Source: a virus (Duplodnaviria > Heunggongvirae > Uroviricota > Caudoviricetes). From it: 51,662 bases of DNA. The translations under genes were made by a program, and so were the position numbers. The stretch lies in IMG/VR virus record IMGVR_UViG_2526164599_000006. One strand, given 5' to 3'. A model generated the notes under the pieces. It saw only the letters and a list, made by a program, of their open reading frames with translations, did not search any database and was not told where the DNA came from. Below are positions 8,527 through 45,888 of the stretch, in pieces. The stretch's first letter is position 1. Each line of letters begins with the position of its first letter.

Positions 8527-8805
8527 TCAGGCGCGGCGGCATTTTTGCGCCGCAATCCATCTCGCTATGAGATCTTCCATTGATTCTTTTTTCTGCTTTA
8601 ACTCGCTGATTATCTGGCGTTGCTCATCCTCAGGGAAGGCTGAAAAAATCTGCAATAATTCCAGTTGATTAGACGTTAACCCTGCATGTGGTGGAGAAAC
8701 CCCCGGTTGTTCTGCGTATTCCGCATCCAGATACCCTTCCGGCATCCCGTATGTTTGCTCTATTCTTCTGGCAGCCTTTTCTCCAAACGAGGCTCTCCCA
8801 CTCAT
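8527..8805 (-). CDS. repressor-like regulator (PaaR2/CI-like), N-terminal HTH region apparently out of frame
   Basis: 92-aa ORF from ATG 8805; the same frame continues upstream without a start codon and encodes HTH-like residues (EIRRLRLKEWFKDKTLPPKEKSYLSQL); an ATG at 8897 is in another frame separated by an A7 tract (8887..8893). Confidence 0.5.
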   Translation of the reverse strand: MSGRASFGEKAARRIEQTYGMPEGYLDAEYAEQPGVSPPHAGLTSNQLELLQIFSAFPEDEQRQIISELKQKKESMEDLIARWIAAQKCRRA

Positions 8806-33045: not shown

Positions 33046-33096
33046 TCCGTGAGCGGGGGCGAAATGCCCCCGTGTCTTTTTTCACAGGAGGCTGAG

Positions 33097-38954: not shown

Positions 38955-39280
38955 AGACCTTCCACTGGAAAGTGAAACCCGGTATGGATGTGGCTTCAGC
39001 CCCTTCCGTCAGGAAAGTGCGCTTTGGTGATGGCTATTCCCAGCGAGCGCCTGCCGGGCTGAATGCCGACCTGAAAACGTACAGCGTGACGCTTTCTGTT
39101 CCCCGTTGGGAGGCCACGGCGCTTGAGTCGTTTCTGGCTGAGCACGGGGGCTGGAAATCCTTTCTGTGGACGCCGCCTTATGAGTGGCGGCAGATAAAGG
39201 TGACCTGCGCAAAATGGTCGTCGCGGGTCAGTATGCTGCGTGTTGAGTTCAGCGCAGAGTTTGAACAGGTGGTGAACTGA
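38951..39280 (+). CDS. M: minor tail protein M
   Basis: 109-aa ORF similar to lambda gpM. Confidence 0.85.
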   Translation: MKTFHWKVKPGMDVASAPSVRKVRFGDGYSQRAPAGLNADLKTYSVTLSVPRWEATALESFLAEHGGWKSFLWTPPYEWRQIKVTCAKWSSRVSMLRVEFSAEFEQVVN

Positions 39281-39978
39281 TGCAGGATATCCGGCAGGAA
39301 ACACTGAATGAATGCACCCGTGCGGAGCAGTCGGCCAGCGTGGTGCTCTGGGAAATCGATCTGACAGAGGTCGGTGGAGAACGTTATTTTTTCTGTAATG
39401 AGCAGAACGAAAAAGGTGAGCCGGTCACCTGGCAGGGGCGACAGTATCAGCCGTATCCCATTCAGGGGAGTGGTTTTGAACTGAATGGCAAAGGCACCAG
39501 TACGCGCCCCACGCTGACGGTTTCTAACCTGTACGGTATGGTCACCGGTATGGTGGAAGATATGCAGAGTCTGGTCGGCGGAACGGTGGTCCGGCGTAAG
39601 GTTTACGCCCGTTTTCTGGATGCGGTGAACTTCGTCAACGGAAACAGTGACGCCGATCCGGAGCAGGAGGTGATCAGCCGCTGGCGCATCGAGCAGTGCA
39701 GCGAACTGAGCGCGGTGAGTGCCTCCTTTGTACTGTCCACGCCGACGGAAACGGATGGCGCTGTTTTTCCGGGACGTATCATGCTGGCCAACACCTGCAC
39801 CTGGACCTATCGCGGTGATGAGTGCGGTTATCACGGTCCGGCAGTCGCGGATGAATATGACCAGCCGACGTCCGATATCACGAAGGATAAATGCAGCAAA
39901 TGCCTGAGCGGCTGTAAGTTTCGCAATAACGTCGGCAACTTTGGCGGCTTCCTTTCCATTAACAAACTTTCGCAGTAA
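39280..39978 (+). CDS. L: minor tail protein L
   Basis: 232-aa ORF similar to lambda gpL. Confidence 0.85.
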   Translation: MQDIRQETLNECTRAEQSASVVLWEIDLTEVGGERYFFCNEQNEKGEPVTWQGRQYQPYPIQGSGFELNGKGTSTRPTLTVSNLYGMVTGMVEDMQSLVGGTVVRRKVYARFLDAVNFVNGNSDADPEQEVISRWRIEQCSELSAVSASFVLSTPTETDGAVFPGRIMLANTCTWTYRGDECGYHGPAVADEYDQPTSDITKDKCSKCLSGCKFRNNVGNFGGFLSINKLSQ

Positions 39979-39982
39979 TCCC

Positions 39983-40726
39983 ATGACAGAGACAGAATCA
40001 GCGATTCTGGCGCACGCCCGGCGATGTGCGCCAGCGGAGTCGTGCGGCTTCGTGGTGAGAGCGCCGGAGGGGGAAAGATATTTTCCCTGCGTGAATATTT
40101 CCGGTGAGCCGGAGGATTATTTCCGGATGGCTCCGGAGGACTGGCTGCAGGCAGAGATGCAGGGTGAGATTGTGGCACTGGTCCACAGTCATCCCGGTGG
40201 TCTGCCCTGGCTGAGTGAGGCTGACCGGCGGCTGCAGGTGCAGAGTGATTTGCCGTGGTGGCTGGTCTGCCGGGGTGAGATTCATAAATTCCGCTGTGTG
40301 CCGCATCTCACCGGGCGGCGCTTTGAGCACGGGGTGACGGACTGTTACACGCTGTTCCGGGATGCTTATCATCTGGCGGGGATTGAGATGCCGGATTTTC
40401 ATCGCGGGGATGACTGGTGGCGTCACGGTCAGAATCTCTATCTGGATAATCTGGAGGCCACAGGGCTGTATCAGGTGCCGTTGTCAGCGGCGCAGCCGGG
40501 CGATGTGCTGCTGTGCTGTTTTGGTTCATCGGTGCCGAATCATGCCGCCATTTACTGTGGTGACGGCGAGCTGCTGCACCATATTCCTGAACAACTGAGC
40601 AAACGAGAGAGGTACACCGACAAATGGCAGCGACGCACACACTCCCTCTGGCGTCACCAGGCATGGCACGCATCTGCCTTTACGGGGATTTGCAACGATT
40701 TGGCCGCCGCATCGACCTTCGTGTGA
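39983..40726 (+). CDS. K: tail assembly protein K (NlpC/P60 and JAB-like)
   Basis: Product MTETESAILAHARRCAPAESCGFVV... as lambda gpK. Confidence 0.85.
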   Translation: MTETESAILAHARRCAPAESCGFVVRAPEGERYFPCVNISGEPEDYFRMAPEDWLQAEMQGEIVALVHSHPGGLPWLSEADRRLQVQSDLPWWLVCRGEIHKFRCVPHLTGRRFEHGVTDCYTLFRDAYHLAGIEMPDFHRGDDWWRHGQNLYLDNLEATGLYQVPLSAAQPGDVLLCCFGSSVPNHAAIYCGDGELLHHIPEQLSKRERYTDKWQRRTHSLWRHQAWHASAFTGICNDLAAASTFV

Positions 40727-41264
40727 AACGGGGGCTGAAGCCATCCGGGCACTGGCCACACAGCTCCCGGCGTTTCGTCAGAAACTGAGCGATGGCTGGT
40801 ATCAGGTACGGATTGCCGGGCGGGATGCAGGAGAAACCGAATTATCATCCCGTCTTAATGAGCCGCTGGCAAATGGTGCCGTGATCCACATCGTGCCGCG
40901 TCTTGCGGGAGCAAAAAGTGGCGGTGTGTTTCAGGCGGTGCTGGGTGCGGCGTTGATTGCTACGGCAATCTGGATGCCGGGGATCAGTATCGCTTTCAGT
41001 GACATTCTCTTTTCAATGGGTGCGGCGATGACGCTTGGTGGTGTGGCGCAGATGCTGGCACCGAAAGCCAGAACTCCACGTACACAGACAACGGATAACG
41101 GCAAACAGAACACCTATTTCTCCTCACTGGATAACATGGTTGCCCAGGGCAATGTCCTGCCTGTTCTGTACGGTGAAATGCGCGTGGGGTCACGTGTGGC
41201 ATCTCAGGAGATCAGCACGGCAGATGAAGGGGATGGTGGTCAGGTTGTGGTAATTGGGCGGTAA
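40624..41264 (+). pseudogene. I: tail assembly protein I, interrupted by a 1-nt frame disruption
   Basis: N-terminal 54 codons in frame 1 (ATG 40624, stop 40786..40788); remaining I-like sequence in frame 0 is open from 40599 to 41264 with no ATG; shift lies at AAA/GGGGG tracts 40726..40734. Confidence 0.5.
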
Positions 41265-41336
41265 TATTATTTACTCATGTTCTAACTGATTTAATATTTA
41301 TATCGAACACTGATAATTATTCTATTGGTTAGCTAT

Positions 41337-41675
41337 ATGAACAAAACGATTTTATTCTGCACGATTATTGCCTTAACAGGATGTAAATCTTTGGATTACG
41401 TAAAATCCGGAAAACCTGTAATGGAAGGTAATTCATTAAAAAATATTGATGAATTGTCAGGCTGCATATCCAGACAATGGGCTGGTAATGGAACACCTAT
41501 AACATCCCTTCCTATTGAGAATGGGGTAAGCCTTTTAGTTCCACAGGCTATGGGGGGATATGATGTTGTGCTTGATATCAAAAAAGCAGGAAATGGCAGT
41601 AGTTTTACTCTTTATGAACGTGTACCAGCATTAACGCCAAAAATTTTTGCTGATAGTGTTAATGCATGTAAATAA
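41337..41675 (+). CDS. lipoprotein of unknown function (moron between I and J)
   Basis: Product MNKTILFCTIIALTGCKS... with lipobox LTGC; AT-rich DNA; own terminator downstream. Confidence 0.5.
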   Translation: MNKTILFCTIIALTGCKSLDYVKSGKPVMEGNSLKNIDELSGCISRQWAGNGTPITSLPIENGVSLLVPQAMGGYDVVLDIKKAGNGSSFTLYERVPALTPKIFADSVNACK

Positions 41676-41699
41676 TAGTTAATCCTGCCGTAACTCATG

Positions 41700-41727
41700 A
41701 GCCGCCTTTTGGGCGGCTTTGTTGTTT
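41700..41727 (+). terminator. rho-independent terminator
   Basis: AGCCGCC-TTTTG-GGCGGCT followed by TTGTTGTTT. Confidence 0.5.
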
Positions 41728-41741
41728 ATGGAGTGTGAGGA

Positions 41742-44700
41742 ATGGGTAAAGGAAGCAGTAAGGGGCATACCCCGCGCGAAGCGAAGGACAACCTGAAGTC
41801 CACGCAGCTGCTGAGTGTGATCGATGCCATCAGCGAAGGGCCGGTTGAAGGTCCGGTGGACGGATTAAAAAGCGTGCTGCTGAACAGTACGCCGGTGCTG
41901 GACAGTGAGGGGAATACCAATATATCCGGTGTCACGGTGGTGTTCCGGGCAGGTGAGCAGGAGCAGACACCGCCGGAGGGATTTGAATCCTCCGGCTCCG
42001 AGACGGTGCTGGGTACGGAAGTGAAATATGACACGCCGATCACCCGGACCATCACGTCGGCAAACATCGACCGTCTGCGCTTTACCTTCGGTGTGCAGGC
42101 ACTGGTGGAAACCACCTCAAAGGGGGACAGGAATCCGTCGGAAGTCCGCCTGCTGGTTCAGATCCAGCGTAACGGTGGCTGGGTGACGGAAAAAGACATC
42201 ACCATTAAGGGCAAAACCACCTCGCAGTATCTGGCCTCGGTGGTGGTGGATAACCTGCCGCCGCGCCCGTTCAATATCCGGATGCGCAGGATGACGCCGG
42301 ACAGCACCACAGACCAGCTGCAGAACAAAACGCTCTGGTCGTCATACACCGAAATCATCGATGTGAAACAGGGCTACCCGAACACGGCACTGGTCGGCGT
42401 GCAGGTGGATTCGGAGCAGTTCGGCAGCCAGCAGGTGAGCCGTAATTATCATCTTCGCGGGCGCATTCTGCAGGTGCCGTCGAACTATAACCCGCAGACG
42501 CGGCAATACAGCGGTATCTGGGACGGAACGTTTAAGCCAGCATACAGCAACAACATGGCCTGGTGTCTGTGGGATATGCTGACCCATCCGCGCTACGGCA
42601 TGGGGAAGCGTCTCGGTGCGGCGGATGTGGACAAATGGGCGCTGTATGTCATCGGCCAGAATTGCGACCAGTCGGTGCCGGATGGCTTTGGTGGCACGGA
42701 GCCGCGCATCACCTGTAATGCCTACCTGACCACACAGCGCAAGGCGTGGGATGTTCTCAGTGATTTCTGCTCGGCGATGCGCTGTATGCCGGTATGGAAC
42801 GGGCAGACGCTGACGTTCGTGCAGGACCGACCGTCGGATAAGGTGTGGACCTATAACCGCAGTAATGTGGTGATGCCGGATGATGGCGCGCCGTTCCGCT
42901 ACAGCTTCAGCGCCCTGAAGGACCGCCATAATGCCGTTGAGGTGAACTGGATTGACCCGGATAACGGCTGGGAGACGGCGACAGAGCTTGTGGAGGATAC
43001 GCAGGCCATTGCCCGTTACGGTCGTAACGTCACGAAGATGGATGCCTTTGGCTGTACCAGCCGGGGGCAGGCACATCGCGCCGGGCTGTGGCTGATTAAA
43101 ACAGAACTGCTGGAAACGCAGACCGTGGACTTCAGCGTGGGCGCAGAAGGGCTTCGCCATGTGCCGGGCGATGTCATTGAAATCTGTGATGATGACTATG
43201 CCGGTATCAGCATCGGCGGGCGCGTGCTGGCGGTAAACAGCCAGACCCGGACGCTGACGCTCGACCGTGAAATCACGCTGCCATTCTCCGGTACCACGCT
43301 GATAAGCCTGGTTGACGGAAGTGGCAATCCGGTCAGCGTGGAGGTTCAGTCCGTCACCGACGGCGTGAAGGTGAAAGTGAGCCGTGTTCCTGACGGCGTT
43401 GCTGAATACAGCGTGTGGGGGCTGAAGCTGCCGACGCTGCGCCAGCGCCTGTTCCGCTGCGTGAGTATCCGTGAGAACGACGACGGCACATATGCCATCA
43501 CCGCCGTGCAGCATGTACCGGAAAAAGAAGCCATCGTGGATAACGGGGCGCACTTTGACGGCGACCAGAGCGGCACGGTGAATGGTGTCACGCCGCCAGC
43601 GGTGCAGCACCTGACTGCCGAAGTCACCGCAGACAGCGGGGAGTATCAGGTACTGGCCCGCTGGGACACGCCGAAGGTGGTGAAGGGCGTGAGCTTCCTG
43701 CTTCGCCTGACCGTGACAGCGGACGATGGCAGTGAGCGGCTGGTCAGCACGGCCCGGACGACGGAAACCACATACCGCTTCAGGCAGCTGGCGCTGGGGC
43801 GTTACATGTTGACGGTCCGGGCGGTAAATGCGTGGGGACAGCAGGGCGATCCGGCGTCGGTATCGTTCCGGATTGCCGCACCGGCAGCGCCGTCGCGGAT
43901 TGAGCTGACGCCGGGCTATTTTCAGATAACCGCCACGCCGCATCTTGCCGTTTATGACCCGACGGTACAGTTTGAGTTCTGGTTTTCGGAAAAGCGGATT
44001 ACCGATATCAGGAAGGTTGAAACCACAGCGCGCTATCTTGGCACGGGGCTGTACTGGATAGCCGCCAGTATCAATATCAAACCGGGCCATGATTATTATT
44101 TTTACGTTCGCAGTGTGAACACCGTTGGCAAATCGGCATTCGTGGAGGCTGTTGGTCAGCCGAGTGATGATGCATCCGGTTATCTGGATTTTTTCAAAGG
44201 CGAGATAGGGAAAACCCATCTGGCTCAGGAGCTGTGGACGCAGATTGATAACGGTCAGCTTGCGCCTGACCTGGCTGAAATCAGGACGTCCATTAAGGAT
44301 GTCAGCAATGAAATCACGCAGACCGTCAATAAGAAACTGGAAGACCAGAGTGCGGCAATTCAGCAGATACAGAAAGTTCAGGTTGATACAAATAATAACC
44401 TGAACAGCATGTGGGCTGTGAAGCTGCAACAGATGAAGGACGGACGCCTTTATATTGCGGGTATCGGTGCCGGTATTGAGAATACGCCAGCAGGAATGCA
44501 GAGTCAGGTGCTGCTGGCGGCAGACAGGATTGCGATGATTAATCCTGCGAATGGCAACACAAAGCCGATGTTTGTTGGTCAGGGCGATCAGATATTCATG
44601 AACGACGTGTTCCTGAAACGCCTGACGGCTCCGACCATTACCAGCGGCGGTAATCCTCCGGCATTTTCCCTGACACCGGACGGGCGGCTGACGGCGAAAA

Positions 44701-45221
44701 ATGCCGATATCAGCGGTAACGTGAATGCGAACTCCGGGACGCTCAACAACGTCACGATTAACGAGAACTGTCGGGTTCTGGGAAAACTGTCCGCCAACCA
44801 GATTGAAGGCGATCTCGTTAAAACAGTGGGCAAAGCTTTCCCCCGGGACTCCCGTGCACCGGAGCGGTGGCCATCAGGGACCATTACCGTCAGGGTTTAT
44901 GACGATCAGCCGTTTGACCGGCAAATTGTTATTCCGGCGGTGGCATTCAGTGGCGCTAAGCATGAGAGAGAGCATACTGATATTTACTCCTCATGCCGTC
45001 TGATAGTGCGGAAAAACGGTGCTGAAATTTATAACCGTACCGCGCTGGATAATACGCTGATTTACAGTGGCGTTATTGATATGCCTGCCGGTCACGGTCA
45101 CATGACACTGGAGTTTTCGGTGTCAGCATGGCTGGTAAATAACTGGTATCCCACAGCAAGTATCAGCGATTTGCTGGTTGTGGTGATGAAGAAAGCCACT
45201 ACAGGCATCACGATTAGCTGA
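41742..45221 (+). CDS. J: host specificity protein J (central tail fibre)
   Basis: 1159-aa ORF in lambda gpJ position and size. Confidence 0.9.
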
Positions 45222-45288
45222 ATTTTATAACCCAGATACGGGCACCAGAAATGGTGCCTTTTTTATTGCAGAAAAGCGAGAGGTAATT

Positions 45289-45888
45289 ATGCGTAAATTA
45301 TGTGCTGTTATTCTGTCCGCAGTAGTCTGGCTGGTTGCCGCTGGTATGCCAGCGAGCGCAGCAGAGCATCAGTCCACACTAAGCGCCGGGTATCTTCAGA
45401 CCCATACTGATATGCCAGGCAGCGATGATCTGAACGGGATTAACGTGAAATACCGTTATGAGTTTACGGACACGCTGGGGCTGGTGACGTCATTCAGTTA
45501 TGCCAATGCCAAAGATGAGCAAAAAACGCATTACAGCGATACCCGCTGGCATGAAGATTCCGTTCGTAACCGCTGGTTCAGCGTAATGGCGGGGCCGTCT
45601 GTGCGCGTGAATGAATGGTTCAGCGCGTATGCGATGGCGGGTGTAGCTTACAGCCGTGTGTCGACTTTCTCCGGGGATTATCTTCGCGTAACTGACAACA
45701 AGGGGAAAAAGCACGATGTGCTGACCGGAAGTGATGACGGTCGCCACAGCAACACGTCTCTGGCGTGGGGGGCTGGCGTGCAGTTTAACCCGACCGAATC
45801 CGTGGCCATTGATATTGCTTATGAAGGCTCCGGCAGTGGTGACTGGCGCACTGACGGTTTCATCGTGGGTGTCGGTTATAAATTCTGA
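45289..45888 (+). CDS. lom: outer membrane protein Lom (Ail/Lom family)
   Basis: 199-aa ORF with signal peptide and beta-barrel signature ending in GYKF. Confidence 0.85.
   Translation: MRKLCAVILSAVVWLVAAGMPASAAEHQSTLSAGYLQTHTDMPGSDDLNGINVKYRYEFTDTLGLVTSFSYANAKDEQKTHYSDTRWHEDSVRNRWFSVMAGPSVRVNEWFSAYAMAGVAYSRVSTFSGDYLRVTDNKGKKHDVLTGSDDGRHSNTSLAWGAGVQFNPTESVAIDIAYEGSGSGDWRTDGFIVGVGYKF

Follow-up and report, generated by a model that had tools for sequence, protein, structure and literature searches.

The window analysed here is a 51,662-nucleotide (nt) stretch of viral DNA (IMG/VR record IMGVR_UViG_2526164599_000006, Caudoviricetes) from an Escherichia coli lambda-like prophage, in which an accessory lipoprotein gene is inserted between the tail genes I and J. 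The DNA at 41265–41698, which holds this gene, is an accessory cassette (a moron in the broad sense) that has been exchanged horizontally and forms part of the late tail operon; comparison with its relatives shows it in a fixed slot and with a history of exchange separate from that of the surrounding tail genes. As to function, we consider that the lipoprotein may well act as an envelope-level exclusion or conflict factor, a reading to which we give slightly less than even confidence. Lipoprotein morons in lambdoid tail regions are well known, and the family concerned, phrog_914, has been catalogued as hypothetical only; as far as the searched literature shows, the fixed slot beside gene I, the decoupling of allele exchange from the tail genes, the presence of other, unrelated lipoprotein families in the same slot and the SOS boxes in one lineage are new.

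Morons have been defined by extra intergenic DNA, deviant base composition, a promoter and terminator of their own, and expression from the prophage (PMC3594210). The first two features are seen directly at this locus. The tail module runs in the order L, K, I, J, lom, stf and is colinear with that of lambda, in which the I-J junction consists of a 60-nt spacer without a gene. Both flanks of the insert match lambda, mEp332 and cdtI, all of which have no gene and an I-J spacer of about 60–70 nt, and the DNA that is extra relative to these three phages extends from about 41266 to 41698. In the annotation of N15, likewise, gp19 and gp20 are adjacent where mEpX2 has its lipoprotein gene. The content of guanine and cytosine (GC) falls to 0.34–0.40 over 41200–41700, against 0.56–0.60 on either side, with about 430 nt of low-GC DNA; among relatives, the values are 0.41–0.46 for the lipoprotein gene and 0.44–0.54 for the surroundings. 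The preliminary description of this DNA, which had placed the gene in AT-rich DNA between otherwise lambda-colinear tail genes and at a junction empty in lambda, is thus borne out, and the junction is empty in mEp332 and cdtI as well.

Evidence for exchange comes from 11 loci, for which the pairwise identities of the mature lipoprotein were compared with those of the flanking L, K and I proteins by Spearman correlation and Mantel tests. The tail genes covary strongly with one another (Spearman 0.88 for K against I and 0.94 for K against L), whereas the lipoprotein gives 0.00, 0.06 and 0.05 against I, K and L, respectively (Mantel p 0.34–0.44), and co-evolution of the lipoprotein with its own tail tip was rejected on these values. 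The pattern is evident in individual comparisons: K is 92–96% identical among Fraca, L064, L088 and mEpX2, whereas the lipoproteins of Fraca, mEpX2 and the L064/L088 pair share only 22–27%; the lipoproteins of L064 and L088 are about 86–87% identical, and their J ends are unrelated. At the other extreme, the lambda-type K is only 35–41% identical to the others, and its lipoprotein is 52–58% identical to those of six of them. Similarity of the lipoprotein also fails to follow gene J, either in its N-terminus (Spearman −0.16) or in its C-terminal receptor-binding region (−0.25); between Fraca and mEpX2, identity amounts to 75% at the J end and to only 24% in the lipoprotein, and within E. coli, lipoproteins that are at least 99% identical stand beside J C-termini that are 54–100% identical and form at least four classes. 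Linkage to the receptor-binding domain of J was rejected on both counts. Since the divergence of the lipoprotein is uncoupled from L, K, I and J, the gene is an exchangeable cassette, and the occurrence of very divergent alleles in near-identical backbones suggests that the alleles may have specific targets.

This uncoupling weighs against any structural or assembly role, and also against mechanisms that need the carrier's own tail tip or own receptor. Among the latter is a blocker of the T5 Llp or Cor type, which would inactivate the receptor of J and thereby protect the lysogen or the infected cell and keep progeny off debris. A predicted outer-membrane lipoprotein encoded right beside J has the appearance of such a factor, Llp and Cor both being small lipoproteins near receptor-binding genes (PMC9586334; PMC11990801), and transcription as part of the late operon would suit the protection of progeny. 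The near-identical lipoproteins beside differing J ends and the lack of a tie to the J C-terminus across distant loci, however, both speak against it, as does mEpX2, which carries Cor together with a phrog_914 lipoprotein, and no likeness to Cor or Llp in sequence or fold extends beyond the signal peptide. We therefore hold this mechanism to be highly unlikely.

The lipoprotein gene itself lies on the plus strand at 41337–41675, with an ATG at 41337 and a stop codon at 41673–41675, and encodes 112 amino acids (aa), exactly where the preliminary description had seen an open reading frame (ORF) with an LTGC lipobox; an alternative TTG start at 41325 would add four residues. The product begins MNKTILFCTIIALTGCKSLDYVKSGKPV and is identical to RefSeq WP_001332187.1, which is annotated 'hypothetical protein'. 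Its type II signal peptide MNKTILFCTIIA (41337–41384, plus strand), as read from the sequence, has the layout MNK-TILFCTIIA-LTGC-K, in which the lipobox LTGC corresponds to codons 13–16 (41373–41384) and the lipidated Cys16 is followed by Lys, the sequence reading MNKTILFCTIIALTGC | KSLDY. Bacterial lipoproteins were recognized by a positive n-region, a hydrophobic h-region, a lipobox of the form [LVI][ASTVI][GAS]C and a +2 residue other than Asp; all four are present here, the lipidation itself being predicted.

Within E. coli, the 477-nt segment 41265–41741 is found at an identity of at least 95% in 337 of 5426 complete genomes (about 6%), at 349 places, and since lambda-type J 5' ends occur at 8731 places in this species, about 4% of such modules carry it. 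The carriers include UTI89, NU14 and O104:H4 strains (C227-11), in which the protein is identical to WP_001332187.1. A scan of species-representative genomes returned one carrier only, a Kluyvera. Among 62 full-length copies from the retrieved loci, which comprise 22 distinct sequences (aligned with MAFFT), the ORF is intact in 58 and frameshifted in 4, and its variable sites amount to 11 synonymous and 6 non-synonymous changes. The gene is judged on these alleles to be real, conserved and under purifying selection, and the loss or disruption of the ORF in all related prophages, which the preliminary description had named as the outcome that would tell against it, is not what these copies show. 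Here and below, LP denotes the lipoprotein gene, K-LP-I and the like denote gene orders, and I-J denotes the position between I and J. The gene adjoins tail gene I in most tail-module contexts (K-LP-I; I-LP-J in E. coli), as a structural or assembly component of the tail tip might; but a lipoprotein exported by Sec cannot join a cytoplasmic assembly line, the gene is missing from lambda and most lambda-type modules, and it does not co-evolve with its neighbours. A spurious ORF, for its part, is at odds with the purifying selection and with the wide conservation, so that either of these explanations is almost certainly wrong.

Annotation tends to miss the phrog_914 lipoprotein gene. In the RefSeq records of E. 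coli 214-4 and of O104:H4, its locus tag is out of series with those of its neighbours (CXX41_RS26640 and O3M_RS32080), which suggests that the gene was added late to the annotation, and the public record of Pseudomonas aeruginosa phage vB_PaeS-D14P (BK061589) has no annotation for the family member at its K-I junction (L091:3456–3797).

The homology and structure searches that had been proposed for this protein yielded a family but no characterised relative. Residues 1–112 match positions 1–118 of the 118-position profile of phrog_914 (function unknown; E = 7.3e-33), and relatives tested from every genomic context match the same profile. A profile search of 1.8 billion representative proteins gave 126 clusters at 50% identity, whose members are nearly all 105–125 aa long and nearly all carry a lipobox; the close homologues, at 48–62% identity, come from Klebsiella, Enterobacter, Kluyvera and Jejubacter. 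Across 51 diverse members, the lipidated Cys16, Cys43 (41463–41465) and Cys111 (41667–41669) are invariant, and P27, K35, W48 and G63 are nearly so. Cys43 and Cys111, one in each predicted helix, fit a structural disulfide and would thus indicate an oxidising periplasmic location. An AlphaFold2 model built on a 13-sequence alignment has a predicted local distance difference test score (pLDDT) of 85.8, with values above 89 across the mature domain, and gives the predicted mature protein of 97 aa a beta-alpha-beta4-alpha topology. On the negative side, Pfam contained no family at E ≤ 0.1 for the window protein or at E ≤ 0.01 for the 51 relatives, NCBIfam nothing beyond matches at the level of the signal peptide, the anti-phage defence models of PADLOC-DB v2 no match at E ≤ 1, and a profile search of the PDB chance matches only, with no relative by sequence. 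Fold searches returned generic helix-grip or TBP-like matches only (Flpp3, DUF302, BamC-N and KA1), the nearest being Francisella Flpp3, and in the viral structure library BFVD, the only good match was another family member, phiAH14a gp33. Nothing on WP_001332187 or its family was found in the literature searched. The family is accordingly catalogued but uncharacterised, and it is distinct from Cor, Llp and Bor.

The lipoprotein insert to which the preliminary description had drawn attention recurs in the tail modules of many phages, at the K-I, I-J and T-tape measure junctions. All E. coli copies, at a protein identity of at least 98% and from 60 or more loci, are arranged as I-LP-J. The most common slot among the relatives is K-I, and the K-LP-I order is found in phages Fraca and LMessi, in the cultured lambdoid phages mEpX2 (gp19) and HK140, in Serratia phage OS31 and P. 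aeruginosa phage D14P, in a Kluyvera prophage, and in the IMG/VR contigs L064, L072 and L073. A third arrangement, T-LP-tape measure, is seen in contigs L065 and L067–L070, whose lipoprotein matches the Enterobacter protein P0014 and for which the flanks in L065 were confirmed by Pfam; this junction is the slot of the HK97 gp15 moron (PMC3594210). Outside the tail module, family members lie beside a cI-like repressor in three Burkholderia-type prophages, on the repressor side and followed by a second I-like gene in the case of phiAH14a gp33, and in an integrative island in one metagenomic case.

Several of these loci hold further cargo. In the IMG/VR contig L063, about 4.8 kb of accessory DNA (L063:4063–8911) stands between K and I. 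Its genes include a pair of ORFs of about 240 aa each, one for a regulator of the cI/HTH_3 type, a phrog_914 gene whose product is near the Jejubacter calystegiae protein P0006, and another lipoprotein gene, of 148 aa (phrog_3152); the K-I junction can thus take large accessory loads. Pseudomonas phage phiAH14a (NC_074659) has two copies of tail gene I, which are 79% identical with identical C-terminal thirds, and each copy directly follows a lipoprotein gene (gp32/gp33, L087:5028–5948; gp83/gp84, L089:26239–27310), of phrog_914 near the repressor and of phrog_890 in the tail module; gp82, which resembles an HNH endonuclease, is situated between K and the tail-module lipoprotein gene. A Burkholderia gladioli prophage with a family member also encodes a bAvd-like protein beside a reverse transcriptase (RVT_1) at L077:11584–13288, a pair that looks like a diversity-generating retroelement.

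Downstream of the gene, a terminator-like hairpin (41699–41729, plus strand) reads GAGCCGCC-TTTT-GGGCGGCTT, then TGTTGTTTAT, and is followed by the ribosome-binding site of J. The stem-loop proper (41699–41719) has nine pairs, six of them G-C, ahead of TGTTGTTTAT, and it is one of the three strongest plus-strand terminator-like sites in the 20-kb late operon, the other two being located at 33053–33073, after the major capsid gene, and at 45240–45259, between J and lom. The preliminary description had called it the gene's own intrinsic terminator. A hairpin with a T run is indeed present, here and as a GC hairpin plus T run after the lipoprotein gene of every relative examined, whether at the K-I junction, at the T-tape measure junction or on the repressor side; its ownership, however, is ambiguous. 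The empty I-J spacer of lambda, mEp332 and cdtI holds a homologous hairpin, AACCGCC-TGCG-GGCGGTTTTGTCATTTATGGAGCGTGAGGAATG, whose counterpart in the window is AGCCGCC-TTTT-GGGCGGCTTTGTTGTTTATGGAGTGTGAGGAATG, with one stem difference from lambda that is compensated on both arms, and the hairpin therefore belongs to a junction shared with lambda. Either the gene may travel with a terminator of this type, of which lambda keeps a relic, or it may tend to land upstream of existing hairpins.

Joints of one type, in which a GC hairpin with its T run leads to 'ATGG(A/G/T)G' and on to a start codon, stand before J in both lambda and the window, and between the lipoprotein gene and I in Fraca, L073 and mEpX2 (window 41699–41741; lambda J02459 15470–15504, that is, L076:1271–1305; L002:5337–5391; L073:8319–8385; L086:6343–6388), and several relatives have '...TTTTTTTATGG(A/G/T)G' immediately ahead of the following start codon, as does lambda. 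Such a joint could be a shared boundary of terminator plus ribosome-binding site that serves the exchange of cassettes, or the lambda copy could be a relic terminator.

Upstream, the AT-rich leader of 72 nt (41265–41336, plus strand) forms the left part of the inserted DNA and contains a weak Shine-Dalgarno sequence. An autonomous promoter had been proposed for this stretch, and none stands out: in a strict scan, no plus-strand site of the leader reaches 9/12, and the best relaxed hexamer matches, TTTACT-N16/17-TAATAT/AATATT (41270–41298) and TTTAAT-N16-GATAAT (41290–41317), score 8/12, which 59% of shuffled versions of these 82 nt (41255–41336) equal or exceed. Five sites in the leader vary among the 22 alleles, none of them inside the promoter-like hexamers. 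Two similar copies of the motif ACTGAT..AAT.ATT lie at 41284–41298 and 41309–41322, and TGATAATTATTCTAT (41311–41325) bears a loose likeness to a Fur-box half-site. An Rfam match to GcvB was sub-threshold (19 bits against a gathering score of 42) and was treated as chance. In the relatives with the K-LP-I order, only about 30 nt separate the stop of K from the start codon of the lipoprotein gene.

The orientation of the gene always matches that of the tail genes, and antiterminated transcripts of the late operon would therefore have to run through the gene and express it. In the Burkholderia-type prophages, a perfect LexA box, TACTGT-N8-ACAGTA, stands 91–92 nt upstream of the homologue (L077:7891–7910, the same position in L081, and L083:5589–5608); each locus has one box of this kind only, where about 0.01 would be expected by chance. 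Since it lies in a divergent intergenic region beside the cI-like repressor, with the start of a minus-strand gene and its GGAGG just to the left, either the lipoprotein gene or its divergent neighbour may be under the control of the box.

These observations bear on the possibility that the protein is a helper of the lytic cycle, made during lytic growth only, from the late operon or from an SOS promoter, and acting on the envelope of the dying cell, for instance by aiding release or by a receptor-independent block of re-adsorption; it would then not be a gene of lysogenic conversion. The constant orientation, the lack of room for a promoter in the K-LP-I arrangements and of a convincing one in the window, and the LexA box at a conserved upstream distance in the Burkholderia prophages would all agree with this. 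Against it, the terminator-like hairpin that follows the gene in every context has the look of insulating an independently transcribed unit, the gene is neither in nor near the lysis cassette, and the roughly 96% of E. coli lambda-type J genes that have no lipoprotein gene beside them mark it as dispensable for the lytic cycle; we regard such a role as distinctly unlikely.

How an exclusion factor of this kind might work can be outlined from the predicted features of the protein. Lipoproteins in which the +2 residue is other than Asp are sorted by the Lol system to the outer membrane. The pre-lipoprotein would be exported by Sec and lipidated on Cys16 by Lgt, LspA and Lnt, and with Lys rather than Asp at +2, Lol would deliver it to the inner leaflet of the outer membrane, where a compact domain of 97 residues, probably clamped by a Cys43-Cys111 disulfide, would be held on a short tether just under that membrane. 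The job of the protein would accordingly lie outside its own virion; most likely it would bind a component of the host envelope from the periplasmic side and so change what enters the cell, such that other phages or other envelope-targeting agents are excluded and the receptor of its own phage is not masked.

This reading is favoured because T5 Llp, a small phage lipoprotein, jams an outer-membrane receptor from the periplasm (PMC9586334), because HK97 gp15 occupies a slot that is shared with some members of the family, and because genes for exclusion factors are often neighbours of J-like genes (PMC11990801). The repeated occurrence of family members at hot spots of accessory genes counts in its favour as well. 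Several points weigh on the other side. Among the matches from sequence-family, PDB and fold searches, none is to an exclusion protein that has been characterised, and the absent linkage to the receptor-binding domain of J removes the best-understood mechanism. Because no promoter stands out, expression in the lysogen is unproven, and the LexA box of the Burkholderia prophages suggests that expression there may occur on induction rather than in the lysogen. The family could, moreover, equally well be a host-fitness factor.

The last alternative envisages a host-fitness or virulence factor comparable to lambda Bor or Lom, which would contribute to serum resistance, adhesion or stress tolerance and have no role in conflicts between phages. 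The gene is found in extraintestinal pathogenic, avian pathogenic and O104:H4 strains of E. coli (UTI89, NU14 and C227-11 among them) and lies 3.6 kb from lom, as such a factor might. Family members, however, also occur in phages of an Antarctic Pseudomonas, of a mine-biofilm Serratia and of Burkholderia gladioli and in environmental metagenomes, and the function is thus not specific to animal hosts; the divergence of alleles in near-identical backbones points to diversification of the conflict type; and the fold match is weak and generic. On balance, a host-fitness role is unlikely, and an exclusion or conflict factor acting at the envelope is preferred.

A broader proposal, which we consider doubtful although conceivable, is that phrog_914 as a whole constitutes a widespread hypervariable exclusion or defence cassette with a dedicated hot spot beside gene I in the lambda-like siphophages that infect gamma- and beta-proteobacteria, each lineage jamming its own outer-membrane protein or entry step from the periplasm. 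If this were true, the 'reverse allostery' of Llp would be generalised to competitor phages, colicins and tailocins instead of the carrier's own receptor. More speculative still is a variant suggested by the frequent adjacency of K and the lipoprotein gene only, in which the protein would inhibit the NlpC/P60-type peptidase K of incoming phages in the manner of a periplasmic immunity protein. Accessory lipoproteins of the Bor, Cor and Llp type have repeatedly been found to control infection of the cell or its contact with the host, and the present family spans phages of Serratia, Klebsiella, Enterobacter, Pseudomonas and Burkholderia in addition to E. coli, including UTI89 and the O104:H4 outbreak lineage. 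An exclusion factor of this distribution would be relevant to the prediction of host range in phage therapy and to the reading of prophage content; if there is no exclusion role, the family would be one more set of conserved hypothetical proteins.

The genes around the insert are those of a lambda-type tail module. Gene L (39280–39978) and gene K (39941–40726, with JAB and NlpC/P60 domains) are followed by the tail tip assembly gene I on the left flank (40624–41264, plus strand, stop at 41262–41264) and, on the right flank, by the host-specificity gene J (41742–45221, plus strand, start at 41742), which is 83% identical to lambda J overall and about half identical in the C-terminal receptor-binding end of some 140 residues; lom (45289–45888), with an Ail_Lom match, lies beyond. 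When gene I was translated and aligned with its counterpart in the E. coli 214-4 prophage, a frameshift became apparent, caused by the loss of 1 nt from an A run at about 40726–40728 (GTGTGAAA-CGGGGG against GTGTGAAAACGGGGG). This deletion is shared by none of the 47 related loci that hold the site; it represents either a sequencing error in the homopolymer or a recent event that inactivated tail assembly in this prophage.

Two sets of repeats are associated with the insert. An exact 8-nt direct repeat, TTGGGCGG, flanks it at 41254–41261, at the end of I, and at 41709–41716, in the 3' arm of the hairpin, where lambda has TTGGTCGC and GCGGGCGG at the corresponding two positions. A perfect 10-nt inverted repeat, TATTATTTAC/GTAAATAATA, is found at 41265–41274, after the stop of I, and at 41668–41677, across the stop of the lipoprotein gene. 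Both may be due to chance in AT-rich DNA or may be a footprint of cassette insertion.

Among known systems, an outer-membrane spanin of the Rz1 type (o-spanin) was considered and rejected: the small lipoprotein gene of an o-spanin belongs to the lysis cassette, where it lies within or next to the gene of an inner-membrane spanin (i-spanin), whereas the present gene lies between I and J, about 16 kb from the lysis genes, which are at about 24–25.5 kb. The nearest fold match, the Francisella lipoprotein Flpp3 (DUF3568; PDB 6pny and 9nlt), shares an identity of only 6–12% and is not accompanied by a match to Pfam DUF3568, and it explains nothing about the present protein because nothing retrieved gives Flpp3 a defined function. 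Lambda Bor, which confers serum resistance, is likewise a prophage-borne outer-membrane lipoprotein of similar size encoded by an accessory gene, but the window protein does not match Pfam Lambda_Bor, and bor is located in the lysis region on the opposite strand.

Cor of phi80, N15, HK022 and the mEp phages (phrog_1119) resembles the present gene as an exclusion gene of lipoprotein type in lambdoid tail regions, and the two proteins are alike at the N-terminus, namely in the signal peptide, the lipobox and the following 'KP', over 31 columns only in hhalign. They differ in family, and in that Cor is encoded downstream of J and the phrog_914 protein upstream of I or J; as to homology of the mature proteins, BLASTP gave E = 0.24, and hhalign aligned only the signal peptide and about 17 further residues. 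The likeness to T5 Llp is one of type, both being small phage lipoproteins predicted or known to face the periplasm from the outer membrane and encoded beside a host-recognition gene, although no similarity in sequence or fold was found. Llp, for which a crystal structure in complex with FhuA exists (PMC9586334), matches the receptor of its own phage, whereas phrog_914 is without linkage to the receptor-binding domain of J.

A further parallel, in genome organization, is HK97 gp15, reportedly described by Cumby et al. in 2012 as a moron that brings about superinfection exclusion. The two differ in that gp15 is a YebO-like inner-membrane protein, is not a lipoprotein and is not homologous to the present family, and in that its expression from the prophage and its exclusion activity have been shown by experiment (PMC3594210), whereas for the window gene both are putative. 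In both cases, nevertheless, a gene for a small envelope protein, of deviant base composition, has been added inside the tail operon, and the lipoproteins of the L065 group occupy the exact slot of gp15, between the tail chaperone gene T and the tape measure gene.

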